Shown: positions 33,454 to 47,337, numbered from the stretch's first letter. The stretch: 64,000 nt of DNA from an uncultured Planctomycetales bacterium (GCA_964483785.1 CAZACW010000003.1:20559-84558); one strand, 5' to 3'. Translations and numbers: made by a program. Notes: generated by a model not told the origin, from the sequence alone.

Positions 33454-33459
33454 AGGGCT

Positions 33460-35148
33460 TTAGATGTCTTCGGTGACGCGCAGCACCTCGCTGGGGCTGG
33501 TCAGGCCCGCGGCCACCTTTTCCCAGCCGTGCTGGCGCAGGGTCTTCATCCCGTCGGACACGGCCCGGTGCTTGATTTCCCGGCTGGTGGCGCGCGATGT
33601 AATGAGGCCGCGGATTTTTTCATTCAGGAGTAGAAATTCGCAAATGGCCTGGCGGCCGCTGTAGCCGGTCATGCGGCAGGCCTTGCACCCGGTGGCCTCG
33701 TAGATCAGCGGGTCAACGATGGTGTTGTTCAGGTCGAATTTATATTTGATATTGTCCGTCAGGGTGGTGGCTTTTTTGCACGCGGGGCACAATAGGCGCA
33801 CCAGGCGCTGGGCCAGGAAACACTCGACGGAAGAGGCGATGAGGTAGGGCTCGATGCCGATGTCGATCAGGCGCGTGACCCCCGAGGCGGCGTCATTGGT
33901 GTGCAAGGTGGAAAAGACCAGATGGCCGGTCAAGGACATTTGGATGGAAATCTGGGCGGTCTCAAAATCGCGCACCTCCCCCACCATGATCACGTCCGGA
34001 TCATTGCGCAGGATGGTGCGCAGGGCCGCGGCAAAGGTCAAGCCTATGAGAGGATTGGCCTGCACCTGGATGGCCCCCTGCAGCTGGTATTCAATGGGGT
34101 CTTCCACGGTGATGATCTTGGTGTCCTTGGAGTTGATCGCCGCCAGGCAGGAATAAAGCGTCGTGGTCTTGCCGCTGCCCGTGGGGCCGGTCAAAAAAAT
34201 AATGCCGTGCGGCTTGTTGATCAGGACATTCAGGGTCTTGATCTCATCGCCGGTAATGCCCAATTCTTCAAAATCATAGAGCCTAAAGGCGTTTAACAGG
34301 CGGATCACACAACTTTCCCCGTAGGTGGTCGGCAAAAAGGACACGCGCAAATCCATTTCCGCGCCTTCCACCTTCACCTTGAAACGGCCGTCCTGCGGCA
34401 GTCTTTTCTCGGCGATGTTGAGATTCGAAAGGATCTTGATGCGGGAGATCAGGGCGTCCTTGAAGTAGCGGATGTTTTCCGGGACCTGGGCGTCATATAA
34501 TTCCCCGTCGATGCGGTAGCGGATGCGCAGTTCATGGCCGAAGGGCTCGATATGGATGTCCGTGGCCTGGTCCCGGTGGGCATGGAAGAGGATCTGGTTT
34601 AAAAACTGGCTGATGGAGGCTTCCGATGATGTCCCGTCGATGGTTTCCGTGGCCGGGGCCTCGGCGCTCATCATCTCCTTGTCGGACATCATGCGCTCGA
34701 TGGTCTCGGCGCCAAGCCCATAATGCTCGCGGATGGCTTCGTTGATGTCTTTTTCTTCGGCCAAAACCGGCTGGATGGGTCCGCGGGCCACCATGGCCAG
34801 ATCATCCAGGACATTGAGCTTCCAGGGATTGGTCATGGCCACGGTCAAGAGGCCGTTTTCGAATTTGACGGGAAAGACCTTGTAATGGTTGACTGCCTTG
34901 GCCGGAAGCCGGCTGATGGCCTCGGCCGAAGCTTCGACGGATTTCAAGGATACAAAACCGATGTCGAATTTTTCGGCCAGGAGCGGGAACACCGTTTTTT
35001 CATCGGTGATCAGGCCCATGTGGACCAGGGTCAGGCCTAAGGGCTGGCCGGTTTTTTTTTGTTCTTCCAGGGCTTGCTGCAGCTGTTGGGCGGTGATGAT
35101 CCCTTTTTGGACCAGCAATTCTCCCAATAATTTGTTGCGGTTTGACAT
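33460..35148 (-). CDS. gspE: T2SS/T4P secretion ATPase GspE (N-terminal MshEN/T2SSE_N domain)
   Basis: Walker A GPTGSGKTTTLY, Asp box, His box, C-terminal tetracysteine (CPACKK ... CKAC), N-terminal LGELLVQKGIITAQQLQQAL. Confidence 0.9.
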   Translation of the reverse strand: MSNRNKLLGELLVQKGIITAQQLQQALEEQKKTGQPLGLTLVHMGLITDEKTVFPLLAEKFDIGFVSLKSVEASAEAISRLPAKAVNHYKVFPVKFENGLLTVAMTNPWKLNVLDDLAMVARGPIQPVLAEEKDINEAIREHYGLGAETIERMMSDKEMMSAEAPATETIDGTSSEASISQFLNQILFHAHRDQATDIHIEPFGHELRIRYRIDGELYDAQVPENIRYFKDALISRIKILSNLNIAEKRLPQDGRFKVKVEGAEMDLRVSFLPTTYGESCVIRLLNAFRLYDFEELGITGDEIKTLNVLINKPHGIIFLTGPTGSGKTTTLYSCLAAINSKDTKIITVEDPIEYQLQGAIQVQANPLIGLTFAAALRTILRNDPDVIMVGEVRDFETAQISIQMSLTGHLVFSTLHTNDAASGVTRLIDIGIEPYLIASSVECFLAQRLVRLLCPACKKATTLTDNIKYKFDLNNTIVDPLIYEATGCKACRMTGYSGRQAICEFLLLNEKIRGLITSRATSREIKHRAVSDGMKTLRQHGWEKVAAGLTSPSEVLRVTEDI

Positions 35149-35162
35149 AGGTTCACCGGTCT

Positions 35163-36746
35163 TTAAGGCACCGGGGTGGTGGATTCATCTCTGGGGAAGG
35201 GGTCGTAATAGGTCTTGTTGCCTTTGATGGTCGGAGTTGTTTCCATGTATTCCTGGGGGCTGATATGCACGTCCCCGTTGATGATATGCGGCGTTAAAAA
35301 GATCACGATTTCCGTTTTTTTCATGTTACGGTTTTCCGTGTTAAAGGCCTTGCCCAAAAACGGCAAGTCGCCCAAGACCGGGATCTTGGTCTTATTGTTG
35401 ACCAGCTCATCGGTCATCAGCCCGCCGATGATGATGGTGATCCCGTTTTTGATGCGCACCGTGGTCTGCACCTCGGAGGTGTCCACGATGGGGATCACCG
35501 TGCCGTCAGAGGCCGTGAAAGGCTTAGGCTCCTCATTGGAGATCTCCGGCTTGATCTTCATGGTGATGTAGCCGTCATCGTGGATGGTCGGCGTCACGTG
35601 CAATTTCACGCCGGTATCGATAAAGTTGACGGCCTCCGCCGTGGTGGAGGCCCCTTGCGCCGGGGTCGTGGTGGTGCTGGTCGTATAGGGAATGGTGGTC
35701 CCGATTAAAATGCTGGCTTCCTGGTTGTTGACCACGGCCAGGCGCGGATCAGAAAGGGTGCGGGACTTGCCAAAGGTGTCTAAGGCCTGCAGGAGCATGT
35801 AATACGAGGTCGCGTTGAGCGTCCCGATGGAGGCTGTGCCCACTCCGGTGGTGATATTGCCCGGGATGGGGAAATTGCTGATCAAGGTCAGATTGGTGTC
35901 TCCGGTCACATGATGCAGGACTTTTTCCCAGTTGATGCCCATTTGGTACTGGTCGCCCAGGGTGATCTGCACGATCTTGGCTTCAATGAACACTTCCTTG
36001 TCGTTTTTGTCAATGGCCCTGATCATGGTGCCGATTTCCTCAATTTTAGGCGGAATGTCCATGACCACCAGGGTGTTGGAGCGGGCGTCGAATTCAATGC
36101 TGCCCACGTCCTTAGTCAGCATGGGCCCGATGGTCTTGGCCAATTCCTCGGCCTTGGCGTAATTGATGTTAAAGACCTTGGTCTTTAACGGGATGTCGAT
36201 TTGGTGGATATATTTCATGATGTCCACCAGCTTGCTGTCCGCAACGTCCTCGACGATGATGCTGTTGGATTTGCTGTCCGCGATCACCTTGCCGCTGAGG
36301 CTTTTGATTTGAGTGAGCACAGCCACCACGTCCGCGGCCTTGGCCGACTGCAGGGAAACGATGGTGCTTTGCATGTTGACCCCGAATTTATGGCCGGTGG
36401 CCTGCTCATAATCCGCGGCCGTCATGATCTGGGTCACCCCATGGCTCTCGATATAGGCTAAGTCATTGGCCTTAAGGATAATTGTCAGCGCATCATGCAC
36501 GTCCACATTCTGCAGGAAGATGGTCACCCGGCCGGTGATGCTTTTGCCGGCGATGATGTTTAAGCCTGACTTGGAGGACAAAAGCTTAAGCACATCATTG
36601 ATGTCCATGTCCTTGATTTCCAGGGTGTCCAACATGGCAGGCTTTTGCAATTCTTCCTGGGCCAAGCCCCCGGAGGGGACAAAACAGACGCCCCCTGCCA
36701 GAAGCAGGAAAGCAGACAAGGCTGCAGAGCGCATGGAGATGCTCAT
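35163..36746 (-). CDS. gspD: Secretin (GspD/PilQ family)
   Basis: Signal peptide, N0/N1-like domains, C-terminal secretin core (VVNNQEASILIGTTIPY ... IIIGGLMTDE ... IPVLGDLPFLGKAF). Confidence 0.85.
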   Translation of the reverse strand: MSISMRSAALSAFLLLAGGVCFVPSGGLAQEELQKPAMLDTLEIKDMDINDVLKLLSSKSGLNIIAGKSITGRVTIFLQNVDVHDALTIILKANDLAYIESHGVTQIMTAADYEQATGHKFGVNMQSTIVSLQSAKAADVVAVLTQIKSLSGKVIADSKSNSIIVEDVADSKLVDIMKYIHQIDIPLKTKVFNINYAKAEELAKTIGPMLTKDVGSIEFDARSNTLVVMDIPPKIEEIGTMIRAIDKNDKEVFIEAKIVQITLGDQYQMGINWEKVLHHVTGDTNLTLISNFPIPGNITTGVGTASIGTLNATSYYMLLQALDTFGKSRTLSDPRLAVVNNQEASILIGTTIPYTTSTTTTPAQGASTTAEAVNFIDTGVKLHVTPTIHDDGYITMKIKPEISNEEPKPFTASDGTVIPIVDTSEVQTTVRIKNGITIIIGGLMTDELVNNKTKIPVLGDLPFLGKAFNTENRNMKKTEIVIFLTPHIINGDVHISPQEYMETTPTIKGNKTYYDPFPRDESTTPVP

Positions 36747-37237
36747 GGATTTTTACTTACAGGCAAACGGATCTCCTGTCCTTGATAATTGATGATCATG
36801 ACCTTGCTATCGGCGCTGACGATCTTGATCCCGTCCTGCGGGTGGTCCTGGTCGATGAAAAAGGTCTGTTTGGCAAAAGCGTCCTCAACGATAAGCTGCG
36901 GCTCCTGCGCAATGACAATGCCGACCACCTTCAAATGGGCCGGAAGCTCTCCTTTGGGCGTATTTTCGATCATGCCCGACGGGCTGACATAGCTCAAGGA
37001 AAAGATGTCCCTGGGCTGGACCGCCGGGAGCGCCTCATTGGCCTTCATCTCCAGCAAGGGCGTGGACAAAGCCAGGCCCTCTTCTTTGGAGGCGGCTGCA
37101 TGATGATCTTCGGCGTTCACAGTTTCATGCCCTTTGACGGTCCAAAAAAAGGCCAAATAGGCACAACAGCCCAAGGTCAAGGCCATGGACAGCCGTTGGA
37201 CCCATTGAATCATCGGCCATGCTATGCGGGGATTCAT
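36743..37237 (-). CDS. gspC: GspC/PilP-like protein (TM + HR beta-sandwich domain). The ATGA overlap with the secretin gene suggests translational coupling.
   Basis: 164 aa. TM LSMALTLGCCAYLAFFW. C-terminal LKVVGIVIAQEPQLIVED ... IKIVSADSKVMIINYQGQEIRLPV resembles the secretin-binding HR domain. Confidence 0.45.
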   Translation of the reverse strand: MNPRIAWPMIQWVQRLSMALTLGCCAYLAFFWTVKGHETVNAEDHHAAASKEEGLALSTPLLEMKANEALPAVQPRDIFSLSYVSPSGMIENTPKGELPAHLKVVGIVIAQEPQLIVEDAFAKQTFFIDQDHPQDGIKIVSADSKVMIINYQGQEIRLPVSKNP

Positions 37238-37314
37238 ATCTTTTTTTTAATTATACTCTTTAAATTTTATTTCAAAAGGAAAAGATAAACTTTTTGGGAG
37301 GCTTGCACCCTCTT

Positions 37315-37348
37315 TTAAGGAAGCAGGGGTGGGGCCCTGCTTCCTTAA
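37315..37348 (-). terminator. Strong hairpin: 14-bp perfect stem (TTAAGGAAGCAGGG / CCCTGCTTCCTTAA) with a 6-nt loop, 13 nt downstream of the 1110-aa gene stop. It has no U-tract.
   Basis: Read directly. Probably a transcript 3' end or stabiliser between the adhesin-like gene and the AT-rich gspC promoter region. Confidence 0.4.
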
Positions 37349-37360: not shown

Positions 37361-38820
37361 TTACTTCACTACAATTTTATTGCCGTTGGACATCGTTGTC
37401 CATCCGGAGCTGTCCGTGGCCTTGGCGCTGATGCTATAGGTCCCTGGACGGACATTGTACCAGACCATCTTATAAGAAGGGCCGCTGTAGGCAGATCCTA
37501 AATACAGCCATCCATTGGCATAATAATCCACCTTGGCAATATAGCCGCCATGGGCTGTTACGCTTGAGCTCAAGGACAAATTGCTGTAGGCCCTGACCGT
37601 GGCATTATTGGCCGGACTCAGCATGGAGACGCTGGGCGCCATGTGCGCATTCACAGTGATGTTCACTGCGGGTGCGAAGAACACATTGCCGTTGGTATCC
37701 GTGGCCTTGGCCGTAATGCTGTAGGTGCCGGCCTGGGCTGAGTTCCAATTCACGTTATAGGGGCTGCTGGTGGCCTCGCCCAAATAAATGGAACCCGCAT
37801 AATAATCGACCCTGGCTGGCGCGCTGTCCGTCACATTGGCCGTTAAGATGATGTTGGACGGTATGGTGAAGGAAGCGTTGTTAAGCGCAGCTGTAATGAC
37901 GATGGTCGGCGCGACAACAGGCGCTGTTACCGTAATGCTGACAGCGGCTGAAGTAACGCTGACTCCGCCATTGTCCGTGGCGATAGCCGTTAAGCTGTAG
38001 CTGCCGGCTGTTGGATTCTGCCATGACAAGGCAAAGGGGCTGGCTGTGGCCGTGCCCAGCAGGCTTGACCCGCTGTAAAAAGCCACCTTGGAGATGATGC
38101 CGTTATTTTCAGAAGCTGAAGCGGCCAGGTTGATCGCAGAACCTGCCGTAAAATGACTTCCTCCGGCCGGGCTGGTGATGGAGACCTGCGGCAAAGACGG
38201 GACCACAGGCACCACGGGCGCAGCTTTGACCGTGACGGTCACCGGCACAGATGAAGCGGTCATGCCGTTGGCGTCCTGGGTCTGGGCCGTGAAGGTATAG
38301 GGCCCGGCCTGGATATTAGTATTGATGAAGTTTAAGGAATTACCGTTGGCTGAATTCAACAGAACGCCTGCCCCGTTAAAAAGGGAGACCTTGGCAATGC
38401 TTCCGTTGGCCTCTGAAGCCGCGGCTGTGACCGTGACATTATCGCCGGCTGTAAAGCTGCTGCCATCGGCCGGGCTGGTGATGGCCACGGTCGGCAAAGA
38501 AGGAAGCAGCGGCGGTGCGGTCACTGTCACCGTCACCGGCGCGGATGTTGCCAAAATGCCGTTGGCATCCGTGGCCGTAGCGGTCAAGGCATAACTGCCC
38601 GCAGCGATATTGTTCATGACCATGCTATAAGAAGAAAGCCCGCTGGATCCAAGCAGGGCTGTTCCATTGTAGATGGAGATATTGGTAATGGTCCCATTGG
38701 CTTCGGAAGCGGAAGCTGTGATGGTCAGATTGGTCCCGGCGGTGATGGAAGAGCCGCTGACCGGACTGGTGATGGCCACGGTCGGTGTTGCCAGGACACT
38801 GCCGCTGCAGATCCCGTTGG
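37361..38820 (-). repeat. Tandem Ig-like domain repeats (5 copies, about 290 nt each) inside paralog A
   Basis: Periodic protein repeats. Antisense plus-strand ORFs 38322-38594 and 38673-38891 echo each other (MLPLASEAAAVTVTL / MVPLASEAEAVMVRL). Confidence 0.7.
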
Positions 38821-40693
38821 AACACATGACGCTTAAGCATTCTGCATTAAAAAAGCAGGTGCCGCCGTTGGCGACCAGGGAACCGTGCTGATAGGCGCCG
38901 ATGTCCCATGAAGTCCCGCGGGCATTGTTATTGTAATCATTGGATGTTCCGTTTAACGTGATGACCCCGGCCGTACCGATCAAGGGGCTGTTGGCCGTGG
39001 GATAAAACTGGTCTGCCAGGCCGGTGCCGGTATATACAAAGGAACTGTTGAGATTGAAATTGCCGCTGACGCCGGCATTGGCCGGATTGCTGCAGATATC
39101 ATGACTGCCGGCGCAATCCTGGGGATCATAAACATGATAGACCAGATTATTATTTTCAACCACGTGGGCGCAGCTGCCCGCGTCATTTTCCCAGAACCTG
39201 GTTTGCTGGGCATCGCCGTTGGTGTAATCCGGCGCGCCGATGACTAAGCTGTTGTTGACATTCAGGGCCACATTGCCGCCGCCGCACCAGGATGTGGTCA
39301 GCTCAATATTGGTGCCGCCGTTGGAATACAGCGTTGAGTTGGACACATTAAAGGAAGTGGTGGTATTGGGCACGGCAAAGACCAGGCCGTCGCCGGCTGC
39401 GCGGCAGAAATCATGGCCGTTGACCGGCGGGCAATTGCCGTAAGAATCGCAGACTGCCGTAAAACTCTGGCCCTGGAAGAAATTGCAGTCATTGATGATC
39501 TGGGAATTTTCAATGTTCACCGCGCCGTAGTTCAGCTTCAATTGCTGGCTTTCATTGCCTTCGGCCCTGACACGGTAGGCATTGAAGGTCCCGGTGCCGT
39601 TGCAATGCAGATTATCGATGCCTCCCTTGGTGTTATAGGAGACATTGGTATTGCTCATGTTCACCAAATTGCAGATTCCGCTGCCGGCTTCCATGCCCCA
39701 GCCGTCGGCCAGGATAGAGCCGTTGCTGCTGCTGTCATCAGCGCAATCGTGATAATTTAAGGTGTCAAAGGGATTGCTCGAATGCAGCGGATACACCGAA
39801 CCGCAGCCGTTAAAGACAATGGTCTCGCCATTGACCGTGGTGGTGCCGGCCAAGCTCATGGTCCCGCTGTTGCTGATATTCTGGCCCAGGCCCACCCCGC
39901 CGGCCCCGTTGCCGTTGATGATATTATTGGTTTCCGTAAAATTGCTTAAATTTCCGGTTGTGACCCCCCAATAGGACATGCCGTGGATCCAGTTGTTTTG
40001 CAAGTTGATATTGGAGCCGGTCAAGCTGACACCGGTAAGGCCGTAATTGCCGTAAGGTGAGGAAAATCCATTGTTGGGCTTATGGCAGGCGTTGGGAAAG
40101 CCGTTGATCGAGCCTGCAGGATTGGCGCCGTTGGTAACGCAGGATGAATGCTGGGTGATTTCCAGGTTATTGATGACCGTGTTAGCGCTGTTATTGTCAT
40201 TCAGGACCTGGACCACTTGTTCACGTCCCCACAGTTGCGGCCTGTGCGCGCCAATGCCGATCACTGAAGCATTGGACGGTATATTGGCCATGGTGCAGTT
40301 TTCAGGCACAGGTGCGTAACAATTACTGCCGTTGGTGGGGGTGATCACTCCGGTCACGTCCAGACCAATGGGATACTGGGCCTGGGTGCCGGGATTCATA
40401 TCGCTGTCGCCCACTATATAAAGGGTGTCCCCGTCTGCCATGACGCCTGGACGGTCGCAGGTGTTCCAGCCGGTATTACCGCAGCCGGCCCCCAGCACAT
40501 ACATGGGATTGGACAAGGCGCAGGGTTGATTCAAGCCGCTTCCAGGATAAACTGCATTGGTGGTTCCAGTGCATTGGACAGGTGTTCCGCCGCCGTCTCT
40601 TACGTACCAGGTTGCTGCGGAGGCGTTCACTGCACCCATAGCCCAGAAGCCCAAGACCATTGTGATGCTGATTGCCAAATTTGTTTTTTTCAT
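37361..40693 (-). CDS. Large secreted protein: Cys-rich N-terminal module + right-handed parallel beta-helix + 5 tandem Ig-like repeats (paralog A)
   Basis: Signal peptide. N-terminus ATWYVRDGGGTPVQCTGTTNAVYPGSG ... PMYVLGAGCGNTG. Repeated NNxI/NG beta-helix rungs. Five roughly 97-aa repeats of the form ITSPxxGSxFTAGxN ... SENNGxIxKVxFY ... PYxxxW ... GxYxLTAxATDxxG. No PEP-CTERM or LPXTG at the C-terminus. Confidence 0.8.
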   Translation of the reverse strand: MKKTNLAISITMVLGFWAMGAVNASAATWYVRDGGGTPVQCTGTTNAVYPGSGLNQPCALSNPMYVLGAGCGNTGWNTCDRPGVMADGDTLYIVGDSDMNPGTQAQYPIGLDVTGVITPTNGSNCYAPVPENCTMANIPSNASVIGIGAHRPQLWGREQVVQVLNDNNSANTVINNLEITQHSSCVTNGANPAGSINGFPNACHKPNNGFSSPYGNYGLTGVSLTGSNINLQNNWIHGMSYWGVTTGNLSNFTETNNIINGNGAGGVGLGQNISNSGTMSLAGTTTVNGETIVFNGCGSVYPLHSSNPFDTLNYHDCADDSSSNGSILADGWGMEAGSGICNLVNMSNTNVSYNTKGGIDNLHCNGTGTFNAYRVRAEGNESQQLKLNYGAVNIENSQIINDCNFFQGQSFTAVCDSYGNCPPVNGHDFCRAAGDGLVFAVPNTTTSFNVSNSTLYSNGGTNIELTTSWCGGGNVALNVNNSLVIGAPDYTNGDAQQTRFWENDAGSCAHVVENNNLVYHVYDPQDCAGSHDICSNPANAGVSGNFNLNSSFVYTGTGLADQFYPTANSPLIGTAGVITLNGTSNDYNNNARGTSWDIGAYQHGSLVANGGTCFFNAECLSVMCSNGICSGSVLATPTVAITSPVSGSSITAGTNLTITASASEANGTITNISIYNGTALLGSSGLSSYSMVMNNIAAGSYALTATATDANGILATSAPVTVTVTAPPLLPSLPTVAITSPADGSSFTAGDNVTVTAAASEANGSIAKVSLFNGAGVLLNSANGNSLNFINTNIQAGPYTFTAQTQDANGMTASSVPVTVTVKAAPVVPVVPSLPQVSITSPAGGSHFTAGSAINLAASASENNGIISKVAFYSGSSLLGTATASPFALSWQNPTAGSYSLTAIATDNGGVSVTSAAVSITVTAPVVAPTIVITAALNNASFTIPSNIILTANVTDSAPARVDYYAGSIYLGEATSSPYNVNWNSAQAGTYSITAKATDTNGNVFFAPAVNITVNAHMAPSVSMLSPANNATVRAYSNLSLSSSVTAHGGYIAKVDYYANGWLYLGSAYSGPSYKMVWYNVRPGTYSISAKATDSSGWTTMSNGNKIVVK

Positions 40694-40727
40694 AACCCAC
40701 CTCGCCGTTGGGGCATTACATTAAATT

Positions 40728-40767
40728 AAAAAACCTATTCCTCGTTTGCACAAAGAATAGGTTTTTT
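40728..40767. terminator. Bidirectional rho-independent terminator AAAAAACCTATTC-(14 nt loop)-GAATAGGTTTTTT, located 33 nt upstream of the paralog-A start codon
   Basis: 9-bp stem flanked by A6 and T6. On the minus strand it follows the 688-aa gene by about 300 nt and precedes the RBS GAGGTGG of the 1110-aa gene. Confidence 0.6.
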
Positions 40768-40876
40768 AATGGTGAATATGGCAACTGGCTACCTGTCCGG
40801 GCTACGGCCCGGGGTAAGGCCCTATAGCTTTGTGCCCCACCCTTTCGGGTGGTTTACCTTTTACATATCTAAGCGA

Positions 40877-40905
40877 AGCATAACACGTAATTCTTGTGTT
40901 GTCAA
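40877..40905 (-). promoter_or_regulatory. Sigma-70-like promoter TTGACA-17nt-TATGCT on the minus strand, about 175 nt upstream of the paralog-A start
   Basis: Minus-strand read aaacTTGACAacacaagaattacgtgtTATGCTtcg. Perfect -35, 17-nt spacer, 4/6 -10. Confidence 0.3.
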
Positions 40906-41062
40906 GTTTACTAAAAATCAAATATAATTTGATATTAGGTATATTATTTGCCTAATAATCAAAGTATATTTTTGCGGTCAAGATTAAAAAGATCGATGTC
41001 AAATTCGACAGAAACAGGTTTTTATCCTAAAAAATTATTGTAAACCTTAGATAGATATTGAA

Positions 41063-43129
41063 TTAAGATTGTGGTGAAGAGGATTTGGCAGGAGGCAGTT
41101 TTTGGTCGGAAACGGTTATCAGCACAGGTTTTGAGACAGTTGTCCTGCCTTCCGTGTCCGTGGCTGTGGCGATAATGGAATAGGTCCCTAAAGCGACTTT
41201 TTCAGCCATATATTCATAGGGAAGCCGGCTGACCGTTCCCAAAAGATTCATTCCATTGTAATAAAAATTGACATGGGCAATGGTGCCGTTGATCTCTGAA
41301 GCAGCGGCTATAATGGCCACGTTCGACCCGGCCGGGAACATCGTATCTTTAACCGGCCTGGTGATAACGATTTCAGGATTATATTTAATCTGGGGCAAGG
41401 CCGCAGCCGGCTTGCCGCTGGTGATATTCTTGGACAAAGCGTTGAACGGATTGTTTTTAAGGCCAAGCAGGCTGTTGGCTGATGTTCCTTGATAATAGGT
41501 ATCTGCCCTGCCCCCTGCCTGGCCCATGGGTATTTTATCGGCAAAATCAGGTTTTTTGCCGCATGCGTTTAAAAATCCGCTGCAGCCGTGATTATTGTTT
41601 CTGGTGTGGTACACCGTATTGCCCAGCTGGTCCCATTTCAGGTTTCCACAGCTTCCTGCGCCATCGCCGTTGCTTCCCGCATTGTAAATATAGCTGGTCA
41701 AGGCATTGCCGCCGGCGCTGTTGAAGGAAGTATCATCGATCCAGGCATAGCCGCCCAGCACCACATTATTTTTCAAAGATATGGAGGTGGAACCGTCACA
41801 GCCGCTGCCGTTAATATCCGATGATTCCAAGCTTATATTCCCATTGCTTAAAATCGTGTTATTTTCCAAAGAGGTATGGCTGTGATTGGTCACGTTAAAG
41901 ACCACTGCGTCTCCCAGGGCCCGGCAAATGTCCCCGCCTTTAAAACCCGGCGAAGAGACCGCAGCGCCCAGCCACCAGCCGCAATCACCGATTACAACAC
42001 TGTTGGTCATGCGGGAGTTTAAGGCATTCATCTTCACCTGATTGCCGGCATTGCCCTCAAAGAGCATCTTGTCAATGAAGATGTTCCCGTCCCCATTGCC
42101 GTGCAGGGTGTCTAAGCCGTCCTGGGTGTTAAAACTGATGGAGCCTGGGCCCTGGATGCTCCAGTTGCCCGCTCCTCCGTGTCCCACATTGCCGAAGGCC
42201 AGGCCGTCCCCGTAACCGCTTTGGTTTTGGCCGAAACAATCCGTGAGATTGGAAGGGCTGTCCATCACCAGATCATTATTTAAGGGATAGGACTCGACAC
42301 AGCCGTTGTATTCGATCACCGGCTGATCAAAGGTCAAGGTGCCGGAAATCACGGCATTGGTCCCGGTCGTAAATCCGCCATATCCGTTGCCGATGATCCT
42401 CAAGCGCGTAAAGACAGCACTGCCTAAATTGTCCGTGTTGATGCCGTAGCGCCCCATCCCATGCACATAGACATCAATGATATGGACATCATCCCCTCCT
42501 ATATTTAATCCATCCAGCGCCCAGGGTCCGTAGGGATAAGGGCCGTCGTAATTACAGCCTTTGTCCGGGGAATTATAAGCGCAGCTGGCGTGGTCGGTGA
42601 TGTCCAGATTTTGAAGCACAAGATGGTTGTTGTTGGCATTGAGGATTTGCCATAATCTTTGCGTGCCCCATAATTGCGGCTTGTGCTGGCCCGTGCCGAT
42701 GATGGAGCTGGGCTGTAAAGCGCTAAGGCCGGCAGGCAGATTGCCCAGGGTGCAGTCATAGGGGTAGGACTCGGCACATCCCGGCGTCGCGTTATTCTCC
42801 CCGTCATCATATCCGATTTCATATTGGGCCTGGCCTCCGTTTGCCGGATCATCGCCGCTGATGTACAAGGTGTCCCCCGCATGCATCACACCGGCATTGG
42901 CGCAATTGTTTCCGGCATTGCCGCAGCCCCAGCCTAAGGCATAGCGCGGATGATTAAAGGCGCAGTCAACAGCACTGCCGGAGCCGGGATAGGCTGCATC
43001 CGCTGTGCCGGAGCATTCTTCCGGCGTCCCCCCATCCGGGCGGACATAATAGGCCGCGGCCAGGGCAAGGGTCTGGGAAAACACGGCCAGACCGAGAAAC
43101 AGGATGAATATGAAAATGGGTTTGTTCAT
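41063..43129 (-). CDS. Secreted beta-helix protein with one C-terminal Ig-like domain (paralog B, divergent)
   Basis: Signal peptide. N-terminus AAYYVRPDGGTPEECSGTADAAYPGSG ... RYALGWGCGNAG has the same Cys-rich module. Beta-helix rungs and one Ig-like repeat before a low-complexity tail. Confidence 0.8.
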   Translation of the reverse strand: MNKPIFIFILFLGLAVFSQTLALAAAYYVRPDGGTPEECSGTADAAYPGSGSAVDCAFNHPRYALGWGCGNAGNNCANAGVMHAGDTLYISGDDPANGGQAQYEIGYDDGENNATPGCAESYPYDCTLGNLPAGLSALQPSSIIGTGQHKPQLWGTQRLWQILNANNNHLVLQNLDITDHASCAYNSPDKGCNYDGPYPYGPWALDGLNIGGDDVHIIDVYVHGMGRYGINTDNLGSAVFTRLRIIGNGYGGFTTGTNAVISGTLTFDQPVIEYNGCVESYPLNNDLVMDSPSNLTDCFGQNQSGYGDGLAFGNVGHGGAGNWSIQGPGSISFNTQDGLDTLHGNGDGNIFIDKMLFEGNAGNQVKMNALNSRMTNSVVIGDCGWWLGAAVSSPGFKGGDICRALGDAVVFNVTNHSHTSLENNTILSNGNISLESSDINGSGCDGSTSISLKNNVVLGGYAWIDDTSFNSAGGNALTSYIYNAGSNGDGAGSCGNLKWDQLGNTVYHTRNNNHGCSGFLNACGKKPDFADKIPMGQAGGRADTYYQGTSANSLLGLKNNPFNALSKNITSGKPAAALPQIKYNPEIVITRPVKDTMFPAGSNVAIIAAASEINGTIAHVNFYYNGMNLLGTVSRLPYEYMAEKVALGTYSIIATATDTEGRTTVSKPVLITVSDQKLPPAKSSSPQS

Positions 43130-43141
43130 GATTTGGAGAAT

Positions 43142-46100
43142 TTAATTGACCGAAGAATTCGTCACGGTATTGGAAGAGGTCAGGACTCCGTCGGCTTGGT
43201 CTGTCTGTGCGGCATCATCCGCAGCCACAACCACGGGTGCGGCTGCAACGCTCGGCCCAACAACAGGCGGCGCAGGAGTATTGGTGGCTGGCAGCGGCGG
43301 CGGAGTAAGGTTGCTTGCCACATTAATGCTGACCGGTGTTGAGGTGGAAGACCAACCGTAACTGTCCGTGGCCTTGGCCGTTAAGGTGTAATTGCCGGGC
43401 TGGACATTGTTCCAGGTCACGGTATAAGGGCTGTTATAGGCTGTTCCTAAATACAGCCAGCCATTGCTGTAGAAATCAACCTTGGTGATACTGCCTCCTG
43501 TGACCGCGGCATTGGCAGTCACAGGAATATTGGCGAATGAGCCAAAGGAGGCGTTATTGGCCGGGGCCGCGATGCTGATGGTGGGGGCTTTATGGGCGCT
43601 GACCGTGACGGTCACAGGCGATGCATAAAACACATTGCCGTTGCTGTCCACTGCCTTGGCCGTAAGATTATAGCTTCCCGGCTGGGCGCTGTTCCAATTG
43701 ACCTTGTAGGGAGGCCGGTTGGCTTCCCCTAAATAGAGCGATCCCGCATAATAATCCACCCTGTAAATGATGGCCCCTTGATCGGAAACATCGGATTTCA
43801 AGACGATATTGGCAGGGAGCGTAAAAGAAGCATTGCTGCCGGGTGATGTCAGGCTGATGGAGGGCGCATTAACAGCAGCTTGGCTCGGCGGCGCGCTGAC
43901 CGGAGCATTGACGGTAATGCTTATAGGCGCTGAGGTCACGGTTTGATTGTTGGCATCCGTGGCCACTGCGGTAATGGTGTAAGTACCTGCAGGCACATTG
44001 GTCCAGATGAAACTATAGGGGCTGTTGGCATCTGTACCCAAGAGATTATTGCCGTTAAAAAACGCGACCTGGGTGATGCTCCCGTTGTTTTCAGAAGCGG
44101 CAGCATTTAAGGTGATATTATTCCCTGCCGTAAAGGCGGCATTGTTGGACGGAGAACTTATACTGACTACCGGCGGTGAACTCGGCACGGATACGATTAT
44201 GTTGACAGCGCCGGAGGTTGAGGACCAGCCATAACTGTCCGTGGCCTTGGCCGTCAGAATGTAATTGCCGGGCTGGACATTGTTCCAGGTCACGGTATAA
44301 GGGCTGTTTTCTGCGGAACCTATATATAAGGACCCGCTGTAAAAATCAACCTTGGTGATGTTTCCGCCCGAAGATGAGGCGCTGGCTGTCAGCGTAATGT
44401 TCGCGGGCGTATTAAACGATACGCCGGCAGAGGGCGATGTCAGGGAAACTGCAGGCGCTGCATGGGCGCTGACCGTGATATTGATTGGCGTGGAATAAAA
44501 AACCGCCCCATTGCTGTCCGTGGCCTTGGCTGTGACGCTGTAATTGCCGGCCTGCGCGCTGTTCCAGGCCACGGAATAAGGGCTGAAGGTCGACTCCCCT
44601 AAAAACACCGGGCCCGCGTTATAATCGACCCTGTACACCTGGGCGCTGTCTGTCACCGTGGCGTTAAAGGTAATGGCCGCAGGCACGGTAAAGGAAGCAT
44701 TGTTTCCCGGAGAGCTGATGCTGATATTCGGGGCGGCATTGTTCGTTGGGATGTTTTGGGCGGTGACTGTCAAAGCCACGGGTGCCGAGGTCGTTGTGGC
44801 CCCATTGGCATCTGTGGCCACGGCTGTGATGGCATAGGTTCCCGCAGCCACATTATTCCAAGTATAGCTGTAGGGGCTATTGCTAAGTGCAGCCAGCAGA
44901 TTTGTCCCGTTATAATAAGAGACCTGGGTGATGGTGCCGTTGCTCTCCGAGGCGGTTGAGGTGAAGGTGATATTGGAGCCTGAAGCAAAGGTGCTGTTAT
45001 TCGGGGGTGTGGCGATCATCACAACCGGCGCAGCCTGCAGCGCCGGCGCTGTCACTATGATCGTCACCGGCGCCGAGGTCGCGGTGGCGCCGTTGGCATC
45101 TGTGGCCACGGCCGTCAATGCGTCTGTGCCCGGCGGCAGATTGACGGCGATCCATTGATAAGGTGCTGCCAAGGAAGTCCCTAAAAGGTCCGTGCCGTTA
45201 TAGAAGGCCACCTGGGTAATACTGCCGTTGTTTTCCGAGGCCGTGGCTGTAATGGTGACGCTGGCTGTGCTTAAGACGCTGCTGCCGTCGGCCGGAGCCG
45301 TGATGCTGACTGCCGGCTGTCCAGGTGCCGGGGCCGGCGGGTTCTGGATGGGCGGCGGGCTATTTTGGCTTACCGGATTGCTTGGCAGCGTTGTCTGCGG
45401 ATTCACGCATACGGCATTGGAGCAATCATTGTTGGTACATTCCGCGTTGAAAAAGCAGGTGCCGCCGTCAGCCACGGTTGATCCGTATTGATAGGACCCA
45501 ATGGCCCAGGCCGGACTGCGGGGGTTATTGTTGTAATCACTGGACGTGCCGCTTAGGACCAGGCTGCTGTTGCCTGCGCCGATCAAGGGAGAATTGGCCG
45601 CCGGATAAAATTGGTCAGCCAGGCCGACATTGGTATACTCATGGGAACTGTTTAAGGCGAAGTTTCCAGCCACGCCGGCATTTGCCGGATTATTGCAGAT
45701 ATCATGGCTGCCTGCGCAGTCCTGGGGATCATTCACCTGATAGACCAGATTATTGTTCTCCACCACATTGGCGCAGGAGCCGGCATCATTTTCCCAAAAC
45801 CTGGTCTGCTGGGAAAAGCTGCTGGTATAATCCGGCGCTCCCACAATTAAATTGTTGTTGACGTTGACAGTGACCTTGCCGCCGCTGCACCAGGACGTTG
45901 TCAGTTCAATGTTGGTGCCGCCGTTGGAATAAAACGTCGAGTTGGACACATTAAAGGCCGCGGTATTGTTGGGGATGGCAAAGACCAGTCCGTCGCCGGC
46001 AGCCCGGCAAAAATCATAGCCGTTGATGGGCGGGCAATTGCCGTAAGAATCGCAGGAGGTGGTAAAGGGCTGGCCCGCGAAAAAATTGCAGTTATTGATG

Positions 46101-47299
46101 ATTTGGGAATTTTCGATATTAACGGCGGCGTAATTGAGCTTCATCTGCTGGCTTTCATTGCCTTCGGCCCTGACGCGGTAGGCATTGAAGCTCCCGGTGC
46201 CGTTGCAGTGCAGATTGTCCACCCCTCCCTTGGTATTATAAGCAATGATGGAATTGCTCATGGTGATATTGTTGCAGATGCCGGTGCCGGCTTCCATGCC
46301 CCAGCCGTCGGCTAAGATGCCTCCGTTGCTGCTGCTGTCATCGGCGCAATGGTGGTAGTTTAAAGCATCAAAAGGATTGCTGGAATGCAAAGGATAAACC
46401 GAGCCGCATCCGTTAAAGACAATGGTGTCTCCGTTGACCGTGGTGATGCCGCCTAAGGACATGGTCCCGGAATTGCTGATGTTTTGGCCCAGGCCCACCC
46501 CGCCTCCGCCGTTGCCGTTGATGATATTGTTGGTTTCCGTAAAATTGCTTAAATTTCCGGTGGTGATGCCCCAGAAAGACATGCCGTGGACCCAATTGTT
46601 TTCCAGGGTAATGTTGGCGCCGGTGAGGCTTATGCCTGCCAATCCATAATCACCATAGGGGGAATTAAAGCCATTGTTCGGTTTATGGCAGGCATTGGGA
46701 AATCCGCCGGTCTGTTCGGCCGGGTCAGCGCCGTTGGTCACACAGGATGAATGCTGGGTGATTTCCAGGTTATTGATGATGGTATTGGAACTGTTATTGT
46801 CATTGAGGACCTGTACTACTTCTTCCCTGCCCCATAATTGCGGCCTTTGCGAGCCGATCCCGATGACGGAAGAATTGGACGGCATATTGGCCATGGTGCA
46901 GTCTTCGGGCGCCTGGGCCACGCAATGGCGGCCGTCCACAGGTGTAATTACGCCGCTGGTGTCAAGGCCGATGGGATATTGGGCCTGGGCGCCGGGCACC
47001 AGGTCGCTGTCTCCCACAATATAAAGCGTGTCTCCGCTGGACATGAGACTGGGCCTGTCGCAGGCATCAAAGCCGGTATTGCCGCATCCGGCGCCCAGCA
47101 CGTACATGGGATTTGAAAAGGCGCAGGGTTGATTGGTGCCGTTGCCGGGATAGACCGCGTTGGCCGTGCCTGTGCATTGCGTGGGATTGCCCCCGCCGTC
47201 ACGTACATACCAGTTGGCGGCACAGGCAGGCGCTGACCAAAGCACGGCCCAGCCAAAACAGCTTCCTAATATTATGGGGGAGGAAAAAATGAACCGCAT
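43142..47299 (-). CDS. Large secreted protein: Cys-rich module + beta-helix + 7 tandem Ig-like repeats + Pro-rich tail (paralog C). Likely start MRFIFSSPIILG at 47299. The ORF track begins at 47317 inside the palindrome.
   Basis: About 90% identical to paralog A over the sampled beta-helix core (NNW[IV]HGMS[YF]WG ... GWGMEAG[ST]GICN). Seven roughly 100-aa Ig-like repeats. 12-nt gap to paralog B. Confidence 0.8.
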   Translation of the reverse strand: MRFIFSSPIILGSCFGWAVLWSAPACAANWYVRDGGGNPTQCTGTANAVYPGNGTNQPCAFSNPMYVLGAGCGNTGFDACDRPSLMSSGDTLYIVGDSDLVPGAQAQYPIGLDTSGVITPVDGRHCVAQAPEDCTMANMPSNSSVIGIGSQRPQLWGREEVVQVLNDNNSSNTIINNLEITQHSSCVTNGADPAEQTGGFPNACHKPNNGFNSPYGDYGLAGISLTGANITLENNWVHGMSFWGITTGNLSNFTETNNIINGNGGGGVGLGQNISNSGTMSLGGITTVNGDTIVFNGCGSVYPLHSSNPFDALNYHHCADDSSSNGGILADGWGMEAGTGICNNITMSNSIIAYNTKGGVDNLHCNGTGSFNAYRVRAEGNESQQMKLNYAAVNIENSQIINNCNFFAGQPFTTSCDSYGNCPPINGYDFCRAAGDGLVFAIPNNTAAFNVSNSTFYSNGGTNIELTTSWCSGGKVTVNVNNNLIVGAPDYTSSFSQQTRFWENDAGSCANVVENNNLVYQVNDPQDCAGSHDICNNPANAGVAGNFALNSSHEYTNVGLADQFYPAANSPLIGAGNSSLVLSGTSSDYNNNPRSPAWAIGSYQYGSTVADGGTCFFNAECTNNDCSNAVCVNPQTTLPSNPVSQNSPPPIQNPPAPAPGQPAVSITAPADGSSVLSTASVTITATASENNGSITQVAFYNGTDLLGTSLAAPYQWIAVNLPPGTDALTAVATDANGATATSAPVTIIVTAPALQAAPVVMIATPPNNSTFASGSNITFTSTASESNGTITQVSYYNGTNLLAALSNSPYSYTWNNVAAGTYAITAVATDANGATTTSAPVALTVTAQNIPTNNAAPNISISSPGNNASFTVPAAITFNATVTDSAQVYRVDYNAGPVFLGESTFSPYSVAWNSAQAGNYSVTAKATDSNGAVFYSTPINITVSAHAAPAVSLTSPSAGVSFNTPANITLTASASSSGGNITKVDFYSGSLYIGSAENSPYTVTWNNVQPGNYILTAKATDSYGWSSTSGAVNIIVSVPSSPPVVSISSPSNNAAFTAGNNITLNAAASENNGSITQVAFFNGNNLLGTDANSPYSFIWTNVPAGTYTITAVATDANNQTVTSAPISITVNAPVSAPPSQAAVNAPSISLTSPGSNASFTLPANIVLKSDVSDQGAIIYRVDYYAGSLYLGEANRPPYKVNWNSAQPGSYNLTAKAVDSNGNVFYASPVTVTVSAHKAPTISIAAPANNASFGSFANIPVTANAAVTGGSITKVDFYSNGWLYLGTAYNSPYTVTWNNVQPGNYTLTAKATDSYGWSSTSTPVSINVASNLTPPPLPATNTPAPPVVGPSVAAAPVVVAADDAAQTDQADGVLTSSNTVTNSSVN
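43309..45397 (-). repeat. Tandem Ig-like domain repeats (7 copies) inside paralog C
   Basis: Periodicity seen in the protein. Antisense ORFs 44025-44234, 44928-45158 and 45228-45491 repeat the same motif (LPLFSEAAAFKV / VPLLSEAVEVKV / MFSEAVAVMVTL). Confidence 0.7.
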
Positions 47300-47310
47300 A
47301 TTTCTTACAA

Positions 47311-47337
47311 CCATCACAACCCCGGGGGTTGTGATGG
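47311..47337. repeat. Palindrome copy 3 (CCATCACAACCCCGGGGGTTGTGATGG), 12 nt upstream of the paralog-C start codon
   Basis: Read directly. Extends to A ... T at 47310/47338. Confidence 0.8.

Follow-up and report, generated by a model that had tools for sequence, protein, structure and literature searches.

What do three adjacent genes for large, cysteine-rich proteins with Ig-like repeats do for their cell, and are they rapidly changing surface antigens, as an earlier note on this DNA had suggested? In the window, the 64,000-nt stretch that was analyzed, the genes, here called A, B, and C, are flanked on one side by an exosortase-type exopolysaccharide (EPS) cluster and on the other by a complete type II secretion system (T2SS) operon. 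Our preferred reading, to which we give a probability of roughly 0.6, is that they encode Sec-exported beta-helix plus Big_7 accessory exoenzymes of an Omnitrophota exosortase-type EPS locus, which would remodel polysaccharide.

Domain architecture of the three paralogs

The three genes are present as described on one strand, the minus strand, with products of 1110, 688, and 1391 aa. Paralog A (37361..40693) encodes a signal peptide (aa 1-26, ASA/A), a beta-helix core (aa 27-634; nt 40615-38792) that ends in a small C-x5-C-x4-C-x4-C module (Cys 613, 619, 624, and 629), and five Big_7 units (aa 636-1110; nt 38788-37364). In paralog B (41063..43129), a signal peptide (aa 1-24) and core (aa 25-575; nt 43057-41405) are followed by a single Big_7 unit (aa 580-676; nt 41392-41102). 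Paralog C (43142..47317), counted from a GTG start with alternative ATG codons at residues 2 and 7, has a signal peptide to about aa 33, a core (aa 34-650; nt 47218-45368), seven Big_7 units (aa 664-1337; nt 45328-43307), and a Pro-rich/acidic tail.

The paralogous beta-helix plus Ig-like architecture proposed from the sequence is borne out. The repeat numbers of 5, 1, and 7 agree with a Pfam profile search, in which stretches of about 70 to 95 aa per unit matched Big_7 (PF17957) above the gathering score. Against a cut-off of 24.1 bits, A scored 213.5 (E = 4e-64), B 37.8 (E = 3e-09), and C 319.6 (E = 3e-97). Cysteines occur in even counts in the N-terminal region of about 600 aa (24 in A, 16 in B, and 26 in C), and there are none in the Ig tails. 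The signal peptides have AXA sites, and no PEP-CTERM, LPXTG, lipobox, or autotransporter barrel was found in the three proteins. Although EpsH/EpsI genes are neighbors, A, B, and C do not look like exosortase substrates, as they carry no PEP motif and their C-termini are hydrophilic.

Age of the duplication and divergence of the repeats

A recent duplication, with A and C about 90% identical over the core, had been proposed. Over about 640 aa the two cores are 75.6 to 76.5% identical (78.5% at the DNA level over 1793 nt), and 90% is reached only in some 30-aa windows. With a pS of 0.56, a saturated dS of about 1.0, and a dN/dS of 0.16, the A/C duplication is old and under purifying selection. 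B does keep the N-terminal motif and is divergent, as stated, sharing 35-37% identity with A and C. It is nearer to outside homologs: metagenomic proteins share 70-73% identity with it, and a protein from a phage tail module shares 55%.

The Ig repeats, described as near-identical, are also diverged. The 13 units, delimited and aligned across A, B, and C, share 28-68% identity at the protein level and 44-69% in codon-aligned DNA, which speaks against the supposed proneness to recombination or assembly collapse. Tandem Repeats Finder reported no tandem array, and the best DNA repeat spans 128 nt at 83%. Exact repeats reach 49 nt at most, in a pair at 43387 and 44260 between units C7 and C4, compared to 12-15 nt in shuffled sequence. 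Self-similar antisense ORFs do exist, but they are a trivial by-product of the paralogy. A, B, and C are old paralogs and not a fast-varying surface antigen family, and by-eye calls of repeat-rich surface antigens need a check of identity at the DNA level.

Fold and conserved residues of the core

The AF2 model of the A core (pLDDT 91.7, pTM 0.93) is a three-sheet right-handed parallel beta-helix of stacked coils, which corresponds at the fold level to the pectin-lyase-like superfamily; B gave a low-quality model (pLDDT 62). Outside the Big_7 region, A, B, and C gave no Pfam or NCBIfam match, the A core alone matched 0 families, and neither B nor the phage-context homolog matched a PHROG, in agreement with the remark that the N-terminal module was not recognizable. 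In a search of 1.84 billion proteins, 1449 cluster representatives fall within the core family at E <= 1e-3, and 864 still do so at E <= 1e-30. A search with B found 1984 proteins. Almost all members are metagenome-derived, and the named homologs are all labelled "hypothetical." The core is N-terminal in 158 of 190 members, 140 of which have a signal-peptide-like start.

Foldseek neighbors of the core are polysaccharide epimerases, lyases, and hydrolases as well as phage tailspikes, at the superfamily level only (9-18% identity, TMq <= 0.41). Because these matches mix lyases, epimerases, and hydrolases, the fold does not fix the reaction class. The core has no sequence similarity to any polysaccharide lyase (PL) family. 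AlgE4 (A-module, PDB 2pyg; 11% identity) is both the best structural match and the sole sequence-profile match, the latter (E = 0.012) confined to a generic coil region.

In the family alignment (A numbering), D360, K386, and R431 are 99% conserved in all clades, that of A and C included, and H237 is 97% conserved. Most members, 139 of 189, show the signature DHHEDDDKR. B carries its canonical form (D179, H180, H223, E279, D308, D337, D340, K366, and R403), and A a derived one (Q181, H182, H237, S299, D330, G357, D360, K386, and R431). A DSSP map of the A model places D330, D360, K386, and R431 at the same strand position in four successive coils, with D181, E299, and D357, present in 74% of members, on coils neighboring K386 and R431. 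Judging from sequence periodicity and this map, the conserved Asp, Lys, Arg, and His residues may line one groove. Beta-helix PLs (PL1/3/6/9, RbmB-like) use a groove-face Lys or Arg as Bronsted base, and as a rule acidic residues from adjacent coils form a Ca2+ site there as well. In the subclade of A and C, three conserved acidic residues are replaced (D to Q181, E to S299, and D to G357), which implies a different specificity or metal dependence. A, B, and C are probably polysaccharide-cutting enzymes.

Epimerization of a polyuronate EPS after polymerization, in paralog-specific patterns, is an improbable alternative. AlgE1 to AlgE7, the mannuronan C5-epimerases that Azotobacter vinelandii secretes, work on EPS made by the same cell. 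They form a set of secreted paralogs with a catalytic beta-helix and a varying count of C-terminal repeat modules, a plan that A, B, and C would share; AlgG and AlgE rank high in the Foldseek list, and an MBOAT (AlgI-like) gene lies in the window at 62838-63959. However, the AlgE/AlgG motif DPH[DE], YG(F/I)DPH(D/E) in AlgE, is absent from A, B, and C, in which Lys, Arg, and Asp are conserved rather than Tyr, His, and Asp. AlgE combines RTX R-modules with a T1SS, of which there are none here; the paralogs have Big_7 Ig domains and would use Sec and the T2SS. The low identity to AlgE4 argues in the same direction, and family members in phage tail modules suit depolymerases better.

The residue pattern also bears on the view that the proteins lack enzymatic activity and are adhesins, or variable surface antigens that gain and lose repeats by recombination. 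The Ig-like tails fit such a role, c-di-GMP riboswitches often control adhesins, and the exact C4/C7 repeat could in principle delete 3 units; A and C, short of three acidic residues, may by their sequence be non-catalytic binders. Yet the D360, K386, and R431 positions are kept in every clade and the polar-residue ladder at 97-99% family-wide, the fold neighbors are carbohydrate-active enzymes, and the genomic context is EPS biosynthesis and a T2SS. Low repeat identity without a detectable tandem array, the low dN/dS, and the missing anchoring signal count against it as well. In the protein collection, A, B, and two checked neighbors are singleton clusters with no variants seen; the exact C sequence is absent from it. 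We consider this explanation highly improbable.

Linkage to EPS genes and to the T2SS

In the window, glycosyltransferase (GT), Wzy, and acetyltransferase genes lead to a GH123-like gene, then to C, B, A, and the T2SS, past which follow a deacetylase, a GT2, the exosortase genes EpsH/EpsI, a priming transferase, and a sigma-54 two-component system. The GH123-like gene (PF13320; 47374..49098, minus strand) encodes a membrane-anchored protein and is the last of the glycosyltransferase/Wzy block. C starts 56 nt 3' of it and B 12 nt past the C stop, and both probably share a transcript with the EPS genes. A GC-rich hairpin with a 12-bp stem (37317..37346, minus strand), 15 nt past the A stop codon, is probably the end of the A transcription unit.

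The T2SS operon (27276..37237, minus strand) runs from orf164, a GspC-like protein with a TM and a small periplasmic domain, through the GspD secretin, GspE (with an MshEN N-domain), GspF, GspG, three or four minor pseudopilins, GspK, and a GspL-like PilM/PilN protein to GspM. A promoter-like element 5' of orf164 (TTGAA...TATAAT; 37250..37275, minus strand) is kept in five Omnitrophota T2SS loci, cargo-less ones included. Since the T2SS has its own conserved promoter, its linkage to the paralogs is facultative.

The order of EPS genes, GH123-like gene, beta-helix/Big_7 paralogs, and T2SS or exosortase recurs in independent metagenomic contigs. A 33-kb JGI contig has GTs, Wzy, GTs, GH123, two beta-helix/Big_7 paralogs, GspE, GspF, and pseudopilins, and loci L017 and L018 show the same EPS/GH123/beta-helix order. 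The GH123-like gene is immediately 5' of the paralogs in the window, in L017, and in the JGI contig, while GT2 and PMT_2 genes intervene in L018. In three further loci (L041, L032, and L071), riboswitch-led family or Big_7 proteins adjoin GH123, deacetylase, GT2, and EpsH/EpsI homologs, and L002 holds two family members within another EPS cluster. Family members also occur in phage tail modules, in L004 (with tail collar and wedge matches) and similarly in L001, as is typical of depolymerases. No gene of the beta-helix family flanks any of 12 T2SS loci from related Omnitrophota (L005-L016). In two of these, L008 and L013, a secreted sedolisin-like protease with fn3 repeats is encoded directly upstream of the same T2SS operon. 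No gene for uronic-acid or acidic-sugar synthesis was identified in the window.

An assembly artefact, or prophage remnant genes without a cellular role, is barely credible. Repeats can mis-assemble, and B resembles the phage-tail-module protein, but the units are too diverged for collapse, each of the three genes has an unbroken reading frame, a signal peptide, and a conserved core, the scanned part of the window (about 12-64 kb) holds no phage genes, and the gene order is repeated in independent assemblies.

Somewhat more weight, though still well short of the preferred reading, goes to weaponry for predation or attachment, that is, secreted depolymerases acting on a prey's or host's capsule, S-layer glycan, or cell wall rather than the cell's own EPS. 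To our knowledge, Omnitrophota is a phylum without cultured free-living representatives, and it is suspected of predation. The organism belongs to this phylum, and the three genes could belong to the T2SS-plus-giant-protein island that has been described in predatory Omnitrophota; West-Roberts et al. is cited in support. Downstream on the same strand, at 11889-1, there is a giant ORF of 3963 aa or more with a PilZ gene adjoining, the proteases upstream of the T2SS in relatives are digestive enzymes, and family members serving as phage tail proteins attack foreign cell surfaces. Against this, the recurrent, tight linkage is with GH123-like, GT, Wzy, deacetylase, and EpsH/EpsI genes, C and B follow closely on the preceding genes of the EPS cluster, and the T2SS and the giant ORF are about 15 kb apart, with EPS, regulator, and haem-biosynthesis genes in between.

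A predicted c-di-GMP-I riboswitch precedes paralog A

The 369-nt spacer between B and A contains a sigma-70-like promoter (TTGACA-17-TATGCT with an upstream TG; 40877..40905, minus strand), whose position is conserved in L017. Directly downstream lies a c-di-GMP-I (GEMM-I, clan CL00126) aptamer (40776..40867, minus strand), 83 nt 5' of the A start codon. The best model, RF03167 "c-di-GMP-I-GGC," matches over its full length with 60.8 bits against a gathering score of 59 (E = 7e-12 for the whole-window search). In the cmscan alignment, the junction "GA" of RF03167 aligns to "AA" in the window, so that the G of the GGC variant is not present and the aptamer reads as canonical class I, with G20/A47/C92 in the numbering of the Vc2 structure. 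A hairpin of 20-21 bp with a T-run (40726..40769, minus strand), 33 nt upstream of the A start, is the predicted expression platform and intrinsic terminator, followed by the Shine-Dalgarno sequence GAGGTGG (40703-40697, minus strand). The A leader yielded the stable terminator hairpin only and no convincing antiterminator.

An orthologous leader with aptamer, terminator, and Shine-Dalgarno sequence precedes a beta-helix/Big_7 paralog in L017, with one compensatory pair relative to the A aptamer. Related aptamers are found in L008, L013, and L016, and helices covary among four leaders; in L008 and L013, the riboswitch precedes the sedolisin-like protease gene adjoining the T2SS operon. The leader is predicted to place A under c-di-GMP control, and with its own promoter and a terminator platform, the dose of A would follow the cyclic-di-GMP level. 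In Vibrio cholerae, the Vc1 c-di-GMP-I riboswitch lies upstream of gbpA (PMC4545359), and GbpA is a T2SS substrate (PMC3578741). The gene gbpA combines a class I riboswitch in its 5' leader with a modular glycan-interacting product exported by a T2SS, as A would. However, GbpA is a lytic polysaccharide monooxygenase/chitin-binding protein and not a beta-helix, and gbpA adjoins neither a T2SS operon nor an EPS cluster.

Proposed role and closest known systems

In the proposed exoenzyme role, the signal peptides would direct A, B, and C to the periplasm, where 8-13 Cys pairs would oxidize, and the adjacent T2SS would export them. The beta-helix groove would bind polysaccharide, either EPS made by the cell itself or, with lower probability, a prey glycan, and cleave or remodel it via the near-invariant ladder of D330, D360, K386, and R431 with H182 and H237. 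The most likely class of chemistry would be lyase-type beta-elimination on an acidic sugar, with a lysine base and arginine. The Ig tails may act as spacers or as glycan- or surface-binding modules.

PulA of the Klebsiella pul system and SslE/YghJ of the Escherichia coli T2SS-beta are T2SS substrates encoded beside the secretion operon. In these systems, the gene for a large glycan- or mucin-degrading exoenzyme lies directly upstream of gsp in the same orientation, an arrangement that this locus, with its putative exoenzymes, shares; three paralogs, a riboswitch, and a slot with sedolisin-like proteases in related genomes are particular to the present case. Phage tailspikes and capsule depolymerases, as well as WceF of Pantoea stewartii (PDB 6tgf), are comparators for the fold. 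Tailspikes have N-terminal particle-binding domains, whereas the A, B, and C cores start right after signal peptides, and the family has no sequence relationship to any PHROG family.

The closest EPS-locus analogue is RbmB, the V. cholerae VPS polysaccharide lyase (PDB 9ozd; PMC12993940, PMC11637428). It differs in belonging to another sequence family (12% identity to the core), in its size of about 370 aa compared to about 600 aa for the core, and in having neither an Ig tail nor the Cys-rich framework; it is not known to have a riboswitch or a T2SS next to it. Since RbmB stays periplasmic (PMC12993940), export by the T2SS is not a given for A, B, and C.

More tentatively, and with odds against it, two linked readings may hold jointly, a new carbohydrate-active enzyme family and a c-di-GMP-riboswitch-gated Omnitrophota cargo slot. 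The family would possibly be a new polysaccharide lyase family, a disulfide-stapled beta-helix with a D-D-K-R catalytic ladder, and its core may be common to phage tail fibers and bacterial exosortase-type EPS loci. The slot beside the T2SS may be swappable, with sedolisin proteases there in sister genomes, and the second messenger would pick the exoenzyme released for matrix remodeling or prey attack.

There is practical interest in enzymes that cut the polysaccharides of environmental biofilms. If the interpretation is true, a testable function and candidate catalytic residues would become available for a family that counts at least 1,400 clusters, is missing from Pfam, NCBIfam, and PHROGs, and has until now come from uncultured organisms only; the family would also provide a concrete case of one depolymerase-type fold family common to phage tail modules and host EPS loci. 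It would also mean that Omnitrophota wire secreted enzymes to c-di-GMP through riboswitches beside the T2SS.

Gene order around the paralogs A, B, and C

From approximately 12 kb to 64 kb of the window, every gene lies on the minus strand. In the direction of transcription, this region starts with a block of exopolysaccharide (EPS) genes (MBOAT, GT2, PMT_2-like, acetyltransferases, three GT2 genes, GT4, Wzy, a double GT4, and GT4), followed by a gene for a GH123-like (PF13320) membrane protein (47374-49098, minus strand). The three paralogs come next, arranged head to tail on the same strand in the order C (43142-47317; 1391 aa), B (41063-43129; 688 aa), and A (37361-40693; 1110 aa). They are followed by the T2SS operon, consisting of orf164 (GspC-like), GspD, E, F, G, minor pseudopilins, K, L, and M, and then by genes for a polysaccharide deacetylase, a GT2, the exosortase EpsH, EpsI, and a priming sugar transferase, a histidine kinase with a sigma-54 response regulator (PrsK/PrsR-like), and haem-biosynthesis genes with a PilZ gene. 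Only 56 and 12 nt precede C and B, respectively, and these short gaps suggest that both are probably transcribed with the EPS genes. Based on this context and the evidence below, we interpret A, B, and C, with a probability of roughly 0.6, as secreted polysaccharide-processing enzymes that belong to an exosortase-type EPS system, with c-di-GMP tuning one of the three.

Several other features of the region deserve mention. In the EPS cluster, a 475-aa ORF (58911-60338, minus strand) between the acetyltransferase and PMT_2-like genes has no Pfam or NCBIfam match. Among the haem genes, a single 690-aa ORF (15012-17084, minus strand) encodes a HemC-CobA-HemD fusion of porphobilinogen deaminase, a uroporphyrinogen-III methyltransferase-type domain, and uroporphyrinogen-III synthase, with a homolog in the comparison locus L012 (51% identity). 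Downstream of the T2SS genes and on the same strand, a giant ORF of at least 3963 aa (1-11889, minus strand) runs off the window. This fragment has no Pfam match at an E value of ≤1e-3, and its position recalls an Omnitrophota pattern described as a "T2SS-like locus upstream of giant genes" (bioRxiv 10.1101/2023.11.21.568195).

An old duplication with diverged Ig-like repeats

A, B, and C each start with a Sec-type signal peptide, with an AXA site directly before a conserved W/YYVR motif (cleavage regions, with a slash at the cleavage site: A, ...NASA/ATWYVRDGGG; B, ...ALA/AAYYVRPDGG; C, ...ACA/ANWYVRDGGG). Pfam detects Big_7 (PF17957) stretches in their C-terminal parts only, numbering five in A, one in B, and seven in C, and an NCBIfam search adds nothing to this result. 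Cysteines (24 in A, 16 in B, and 26 in C within the first 650 residues, of which C20 and C32 of C are inside its signal peptide) are confined to the N-terminal ~640 aa, leaving the Ig tails cysteine-free. The architecture proposed in an earlier note on this DNA, a beta-helix core with one, five, or seven Ig-like units, is thus borne out.

The same note described a recent duplication with approximately 90% identity between the A and C cores. The actual identity is 75.6% over 643 aa (BLASTP) or 76.5% over 634 aligned codons (78.5% over 1793 nt of DNA); the higher, sampled value is explained by variation among single 30-aa windows, which range from 33% to 93%. Synonymous sites are essentially saturated (pS of 0.56, dS of ~1.0), with a dN of 0.16 and a dN/dS of 0.16 (Nei-Gojobori), pointing to an old duplication under purifying selection. 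B is 35 to 37% identical to A and C.

Nor are the Ig repeats near-identical, as had been stated: the 13 units share 28 to 68% protein identity and 44 to 69% codon-aligned DNA identity. They fall into three subtypes, alpha ("ASASE.NG"), beta ("VTDS..YRVDY"), and gamma ("KVDFYSNGWLYLG"), ordered alpha-alpha-alpha-beta-gamma in A and alpha-alpha-beta-gamma-alpha-beta-gamma in C, with one alpha unit in B. Numbering the units of C in order, C2/C5, C3/C6, and C4/C7 are 61%, 59%, and 68% identical, and DNA repeat families are spaced 870 to 873 nt apart, a pattern indicating that an ancient three-unit block duplication enlarged C. Tandem Repeats Finder identified no tandem array over 35 to 50 kb; the strongest repeat at the DNA level spans 128 nt with 83% identity, and the longest exact repeat, with copies at 43387 and 44260, is 49 nt, versus 12 to 15 nt in shuffled sequence. 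The self-similar antisense ORFs noted earlier do resemble each other, a likeness explained solely by paralogy of the sense genes.

Since the Ig units have diverged at the DNA level and form no tandem array, assembly collapse and fast copy-number change, both previously suspected, are unlikely. In a collection of 15 billion proteins, A, B, and two checked neighbors form singleton clusters, all on one 96,009-bp NCBI contig, and the exact sequence of C is absent. The closest secretin to the GspD of the window (81% identity) belongs to a Candidatus Omnitrophota MAG. An assembly or prophage artefact is hardly credible as an account of the locus. An adhesin role, in keeping with the recombination-prone surface antigens envisaged in the earlier note, would accommodate the Ig tails; we regard it as very improbable.

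A beta-helix family with a predicted D/K/R ladder

A word-indexed search with the A core retrieved 48 relatives (best identity, 63%), none named beyond "hypothetical." When 1.84 billion cluster representatives were searched exhaustively with a profile, 1449 matched at an E value of ≤1e-3 and 864 at ≤1e-30; using the B core as query retrieved 1984 proteins. PF13229 touches only 5 of 49 family members. No relatives emerged when back-translated A-type motifs were used to scan GTDB genomes, viral contigs, and metagenome contigs, as these patterns were too specific. Among 190 members examined, the core is N-terminal in 158, 140 of which have a signal peptide-like start; 25 carry an N-terminal extension of >100 aa, and only eight besides A, B, and C have Big_7 repeats.

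The AlphaFold2 model of the A core, built from a 49-sequence alignment, consists of short stacked strands (pLDDT of 91.7, pTM of 0.93). The model of B, from a 10-sequence alignment, was poor (pLDDT of 62) and was left out of the fold search. Fold matches of the A core, with sequence identities of 6 to 18%, include a phage pectin-lyase-like protein, Pel9A, an alginate lyase, GH87 and GH110 hydrolases, and dozens of phage tailspike depolymerases. GH136, Pel9A, AlgG, AlgE4, and GH110 rank highest in Foldseek (TMq of ≤0.41), and the viral structures in BFVD give generic beta-helix matches only (TM of ≤0.47). These results secure the fold class but not the reaction class. Apart from chance knottin-like hits, AlgE4 is the only PDB sequence-profile match, and a marginal one (E = 0.012). 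Activity as AlgE-like epimerases would agree with that match; however, the AlgE/AlgG motif DPH[DE] is missing from A, B, and C, making this an improbable assignment.

A module with the pattern C-x5-C-x4-C-x4-C closes the A core (window 38807-38857, A residues 613-629), with an equivalent in C. Its knottin-like PDB matches in the sequence-profile search were dismissed as chance. A few family members weakly match conotoxin/knottin-like models, and others have DUF4215 Cys-rich repeats at this position.

Conserved polar positions (A numbering) include R32, D89, T180, and N354. Across 189 family members aligned to the profile, conservation amounts to 87% for D181, 90% for H182, 97% for H237, 92% for E299, 94% for D330, 88% for D357, and 99% each for D360, K386, and R431. 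The nine-residue signature DHHEDDDKR occurs in 139 of the 189, including B. A, C, and four of their nearest relatives carry QHHSDGDKR, and three further close relatives retain the Glu (QHHEDGDKR); in the fully derived clade, three acidic residues are replaced, and D360, K386, and R431 are kept.

DSSP assignment of the model places D330, D360, K386, and R431 (core numbering 304, 334, 360, and 405) at the first-strand position in four successive coils, where they are predicted to form a ladder on one sheet. This predicted D/K/R ladder recalls the lysine-base beta-helix lyases and is the best mechanistic lead. PL6 enzymes pair a Lys base with an Arg acid and have acidic residues forming a Ca2+ site on the preceding coil. 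The ladder of A may also be likened to RbmB, in which K227, E253, and R282 lie on successive coils (PMC12993940). By this analogy, lyase chemistry is a tentative proposal for A, B, and C.

A facultative association with the T2SS

Export of A, B, and C by the adjacent T2SS appears somewhat better than an even bet. RbmB resides in the periplasm (PMC12993940), so secretion of A, B, and C should not be assumed. They could alternatively act as secreted depolymerases directed at prey, which would suit the biology of Omnitrophota and the T2SS/giant-gene pattern described by West-Roberts et al.; we consider this unlikely next to a role in processing the EPS of the cell itself.

Of 12 secretin loci retrieved (labeled Omnitrophota or "uncultured Planctomycetales"), 10 keep the orf164-GspD...M operon. 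A beta-helix family gene is missing from the flanks of all 12 related T2SS loci, showing that the link is facultative. In two of them (L008 and L013), the slot directly upstream of the orf164/GspC-like gene holds a sedolisin-like protease of 870 to 960 aa with a Pro-kumamolisin activation domain and fn3 repeats, positioned exactly as A; L008 has a second such paralog further upstream. In L006 and L015, the slot is empty. Ahead of the GspC-like gene, five genomes share a conserved AT-rich element (AAAAA..TTATCTTTTcCTTTTGAA ... TATAAT; window 37250-37300), with equivalents in L006, L008, L013, and L015; it is probably the promoter or operator of the T2SS operon.

A predicted c-di-GMP-I riboswitch upstream of A

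The 369-nt spacer between B and A carries, in minus-strand order, a sigma-70-like promoter (40905-40877), a full-length c-di-GMP-I clan aptamer (40867-40776), a 20- to 21-bp hairpin with a T-run (40769-40726), a Shine-Dalgarno sequence (SD), and the start of A. The earlier note had missed this riboswitch. The best aptamer model is RF03167 (60.8 bits, gathering score 59; whole-window E = 7e-12). Where the "GGC" variant is defined (Vc2 structure numbering), the aptamer has an A, and its binding-site nucleotides therefore look canonical. A search for an antiterminator that would distinguish ON from OFF switching found only a 5-bp alternative pairing in the leader.

A GC-rich hairpin follows the stop codon of A (37346-37317, minus strand), and the promoter-like element before orf164 is conserved in each of the five genomes, even where the slot is empty. 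Given these two features, control of the whole cargo and T2SS operon by the riboswitch was rejected as the primary reading, and the riboswitch most probably controls A alone.

An orthologous leader precedes the second beta-helix/Big_7 paralog in L017, matching in promoter position, aptamer, terminator, and SD, with one compensatory C-G to U-A change in the P1a helix. No riboswitch was found between the paralogs of L018, even at an E value of ≤0.1. Riboswitches of the c-di-GMP-I class also lie directly upstream of the T2SS-proximal sedolisin-like gene in L008 (region 6203-9230) and L013 (region 6343-9116). A metagenome scan with the aptamer core recovered 69 loci, 52 of which had a scorable downstream ORF: three encode family members, two other Big_7 proteins, one a sedolisin-like protein, four pseudopilins, and five multihaem-cytochrome-like proteins, and the rest are mostly other proteins with a signal peptide. 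The cytochrome-like genes (L024, L027, L036, L055, and L079) encode ~440 aa beginning with a signal peptide and the motif FHSGGVAECGGCHSMH; the pseudopilins (L053, L059, L075, and L084) are GspG-like. Both groups follow the same riboswitch subtype.

In the T2SS ATPase GspE (33460-35148), the N-domain is of the MshEN type, and its first motif (KLGELLVQKGIITAQQLQQALEEQ) agrees with the published c-di-GMP-binding consensus, with K replacing R. Together with the riboswitch and the PilZ-domain gene just upstream of the giant ORF (12099-12512, minus strand), this motif suggests several layers of c-di-GMP control within one 30-kb stretch.

Recurrence in EPS loci and phage-like modules

The combination of EPS genes and beta-helix genes recurs in other contigs. 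A 33-kb JGI contig encodes GTs, Wzy, further GTs, a GH123-like protein, two beta-helix/Big_7 proteins (P0233 and P0236, sharing 36% identity with B), GspE (MshEN), GspF, and pseudopilins. L018 is syntenic with the EPS block of the window (44 to 77% protein identity), followed by a B-like gene (70%) with Big_7 repeats and a second B-like gene. L017 contains GT4 and GH123-like genes with two paralogs, and L002 and L003 have two family members within another EPS cluster. In L041, L032, and L071, riboswitch-led family or Big_7 proteins adjoin GH123, deacetylase, GT2, and EpsH/EpsI homologs.

The membrane-anchored GH123-like protein (L017, 1324-3108; L018, 6059-7393; L041, 101-1669; L071, 4967-6538) is 53 to 59% identical across contigs and is encoded by the last gene of the glycosyltransferase block. 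This gene is immediately upstream of the beta-helix/Big_7 genes in the window, in L017, and in the JGI contig and is close to them in L018, L041, and L071; its product probably serves the same module as a second glycosidase that processes EPS.

Two relatives, P0022 (L004, 10001-12916) and P0009 (L001, 10001-12253), occur in phage-tail-like modules, with PHROG/Pfam matches to tail collar, tail fiber, and wedge proteins in L004. B is 55% identical to the L004 protein, versus only 35 to 37% to A and C. Both relatives have a Laminin_G_3-type N-terminal extension or adjacent gene and are surrounded by very large uncharacterized proteins (979 to 1452 aa). These modules look like unrecognized tail-fiber/depolymerase arrays of uncultured phages.

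Three elements are each already known separately: beta-helix enzymes that act on glycans and bear Ig-like tails in EPS loci, T2SS substrates whose genes adjoin gsp operons, and c-di-GMP riboswitches before genes for secreted proteins. The literature searched links Omnitrophota and riboswitches only in incidental mentions, and in the Omnitrophota genome papers searched, exosortase and pectate-lyase terms are absent and beta-helices are named only for other proteins. What is new is the beta-helix family itself, absent from Pfam, NCBIfam, and PHROGs; its dual distribution in phages and EPS loci; the derived predicted active-site signature of A and C; and the recurrent pairing of the family with a leader of the c-di-GMP-I (GEMM-I) class in Omnitrophota.
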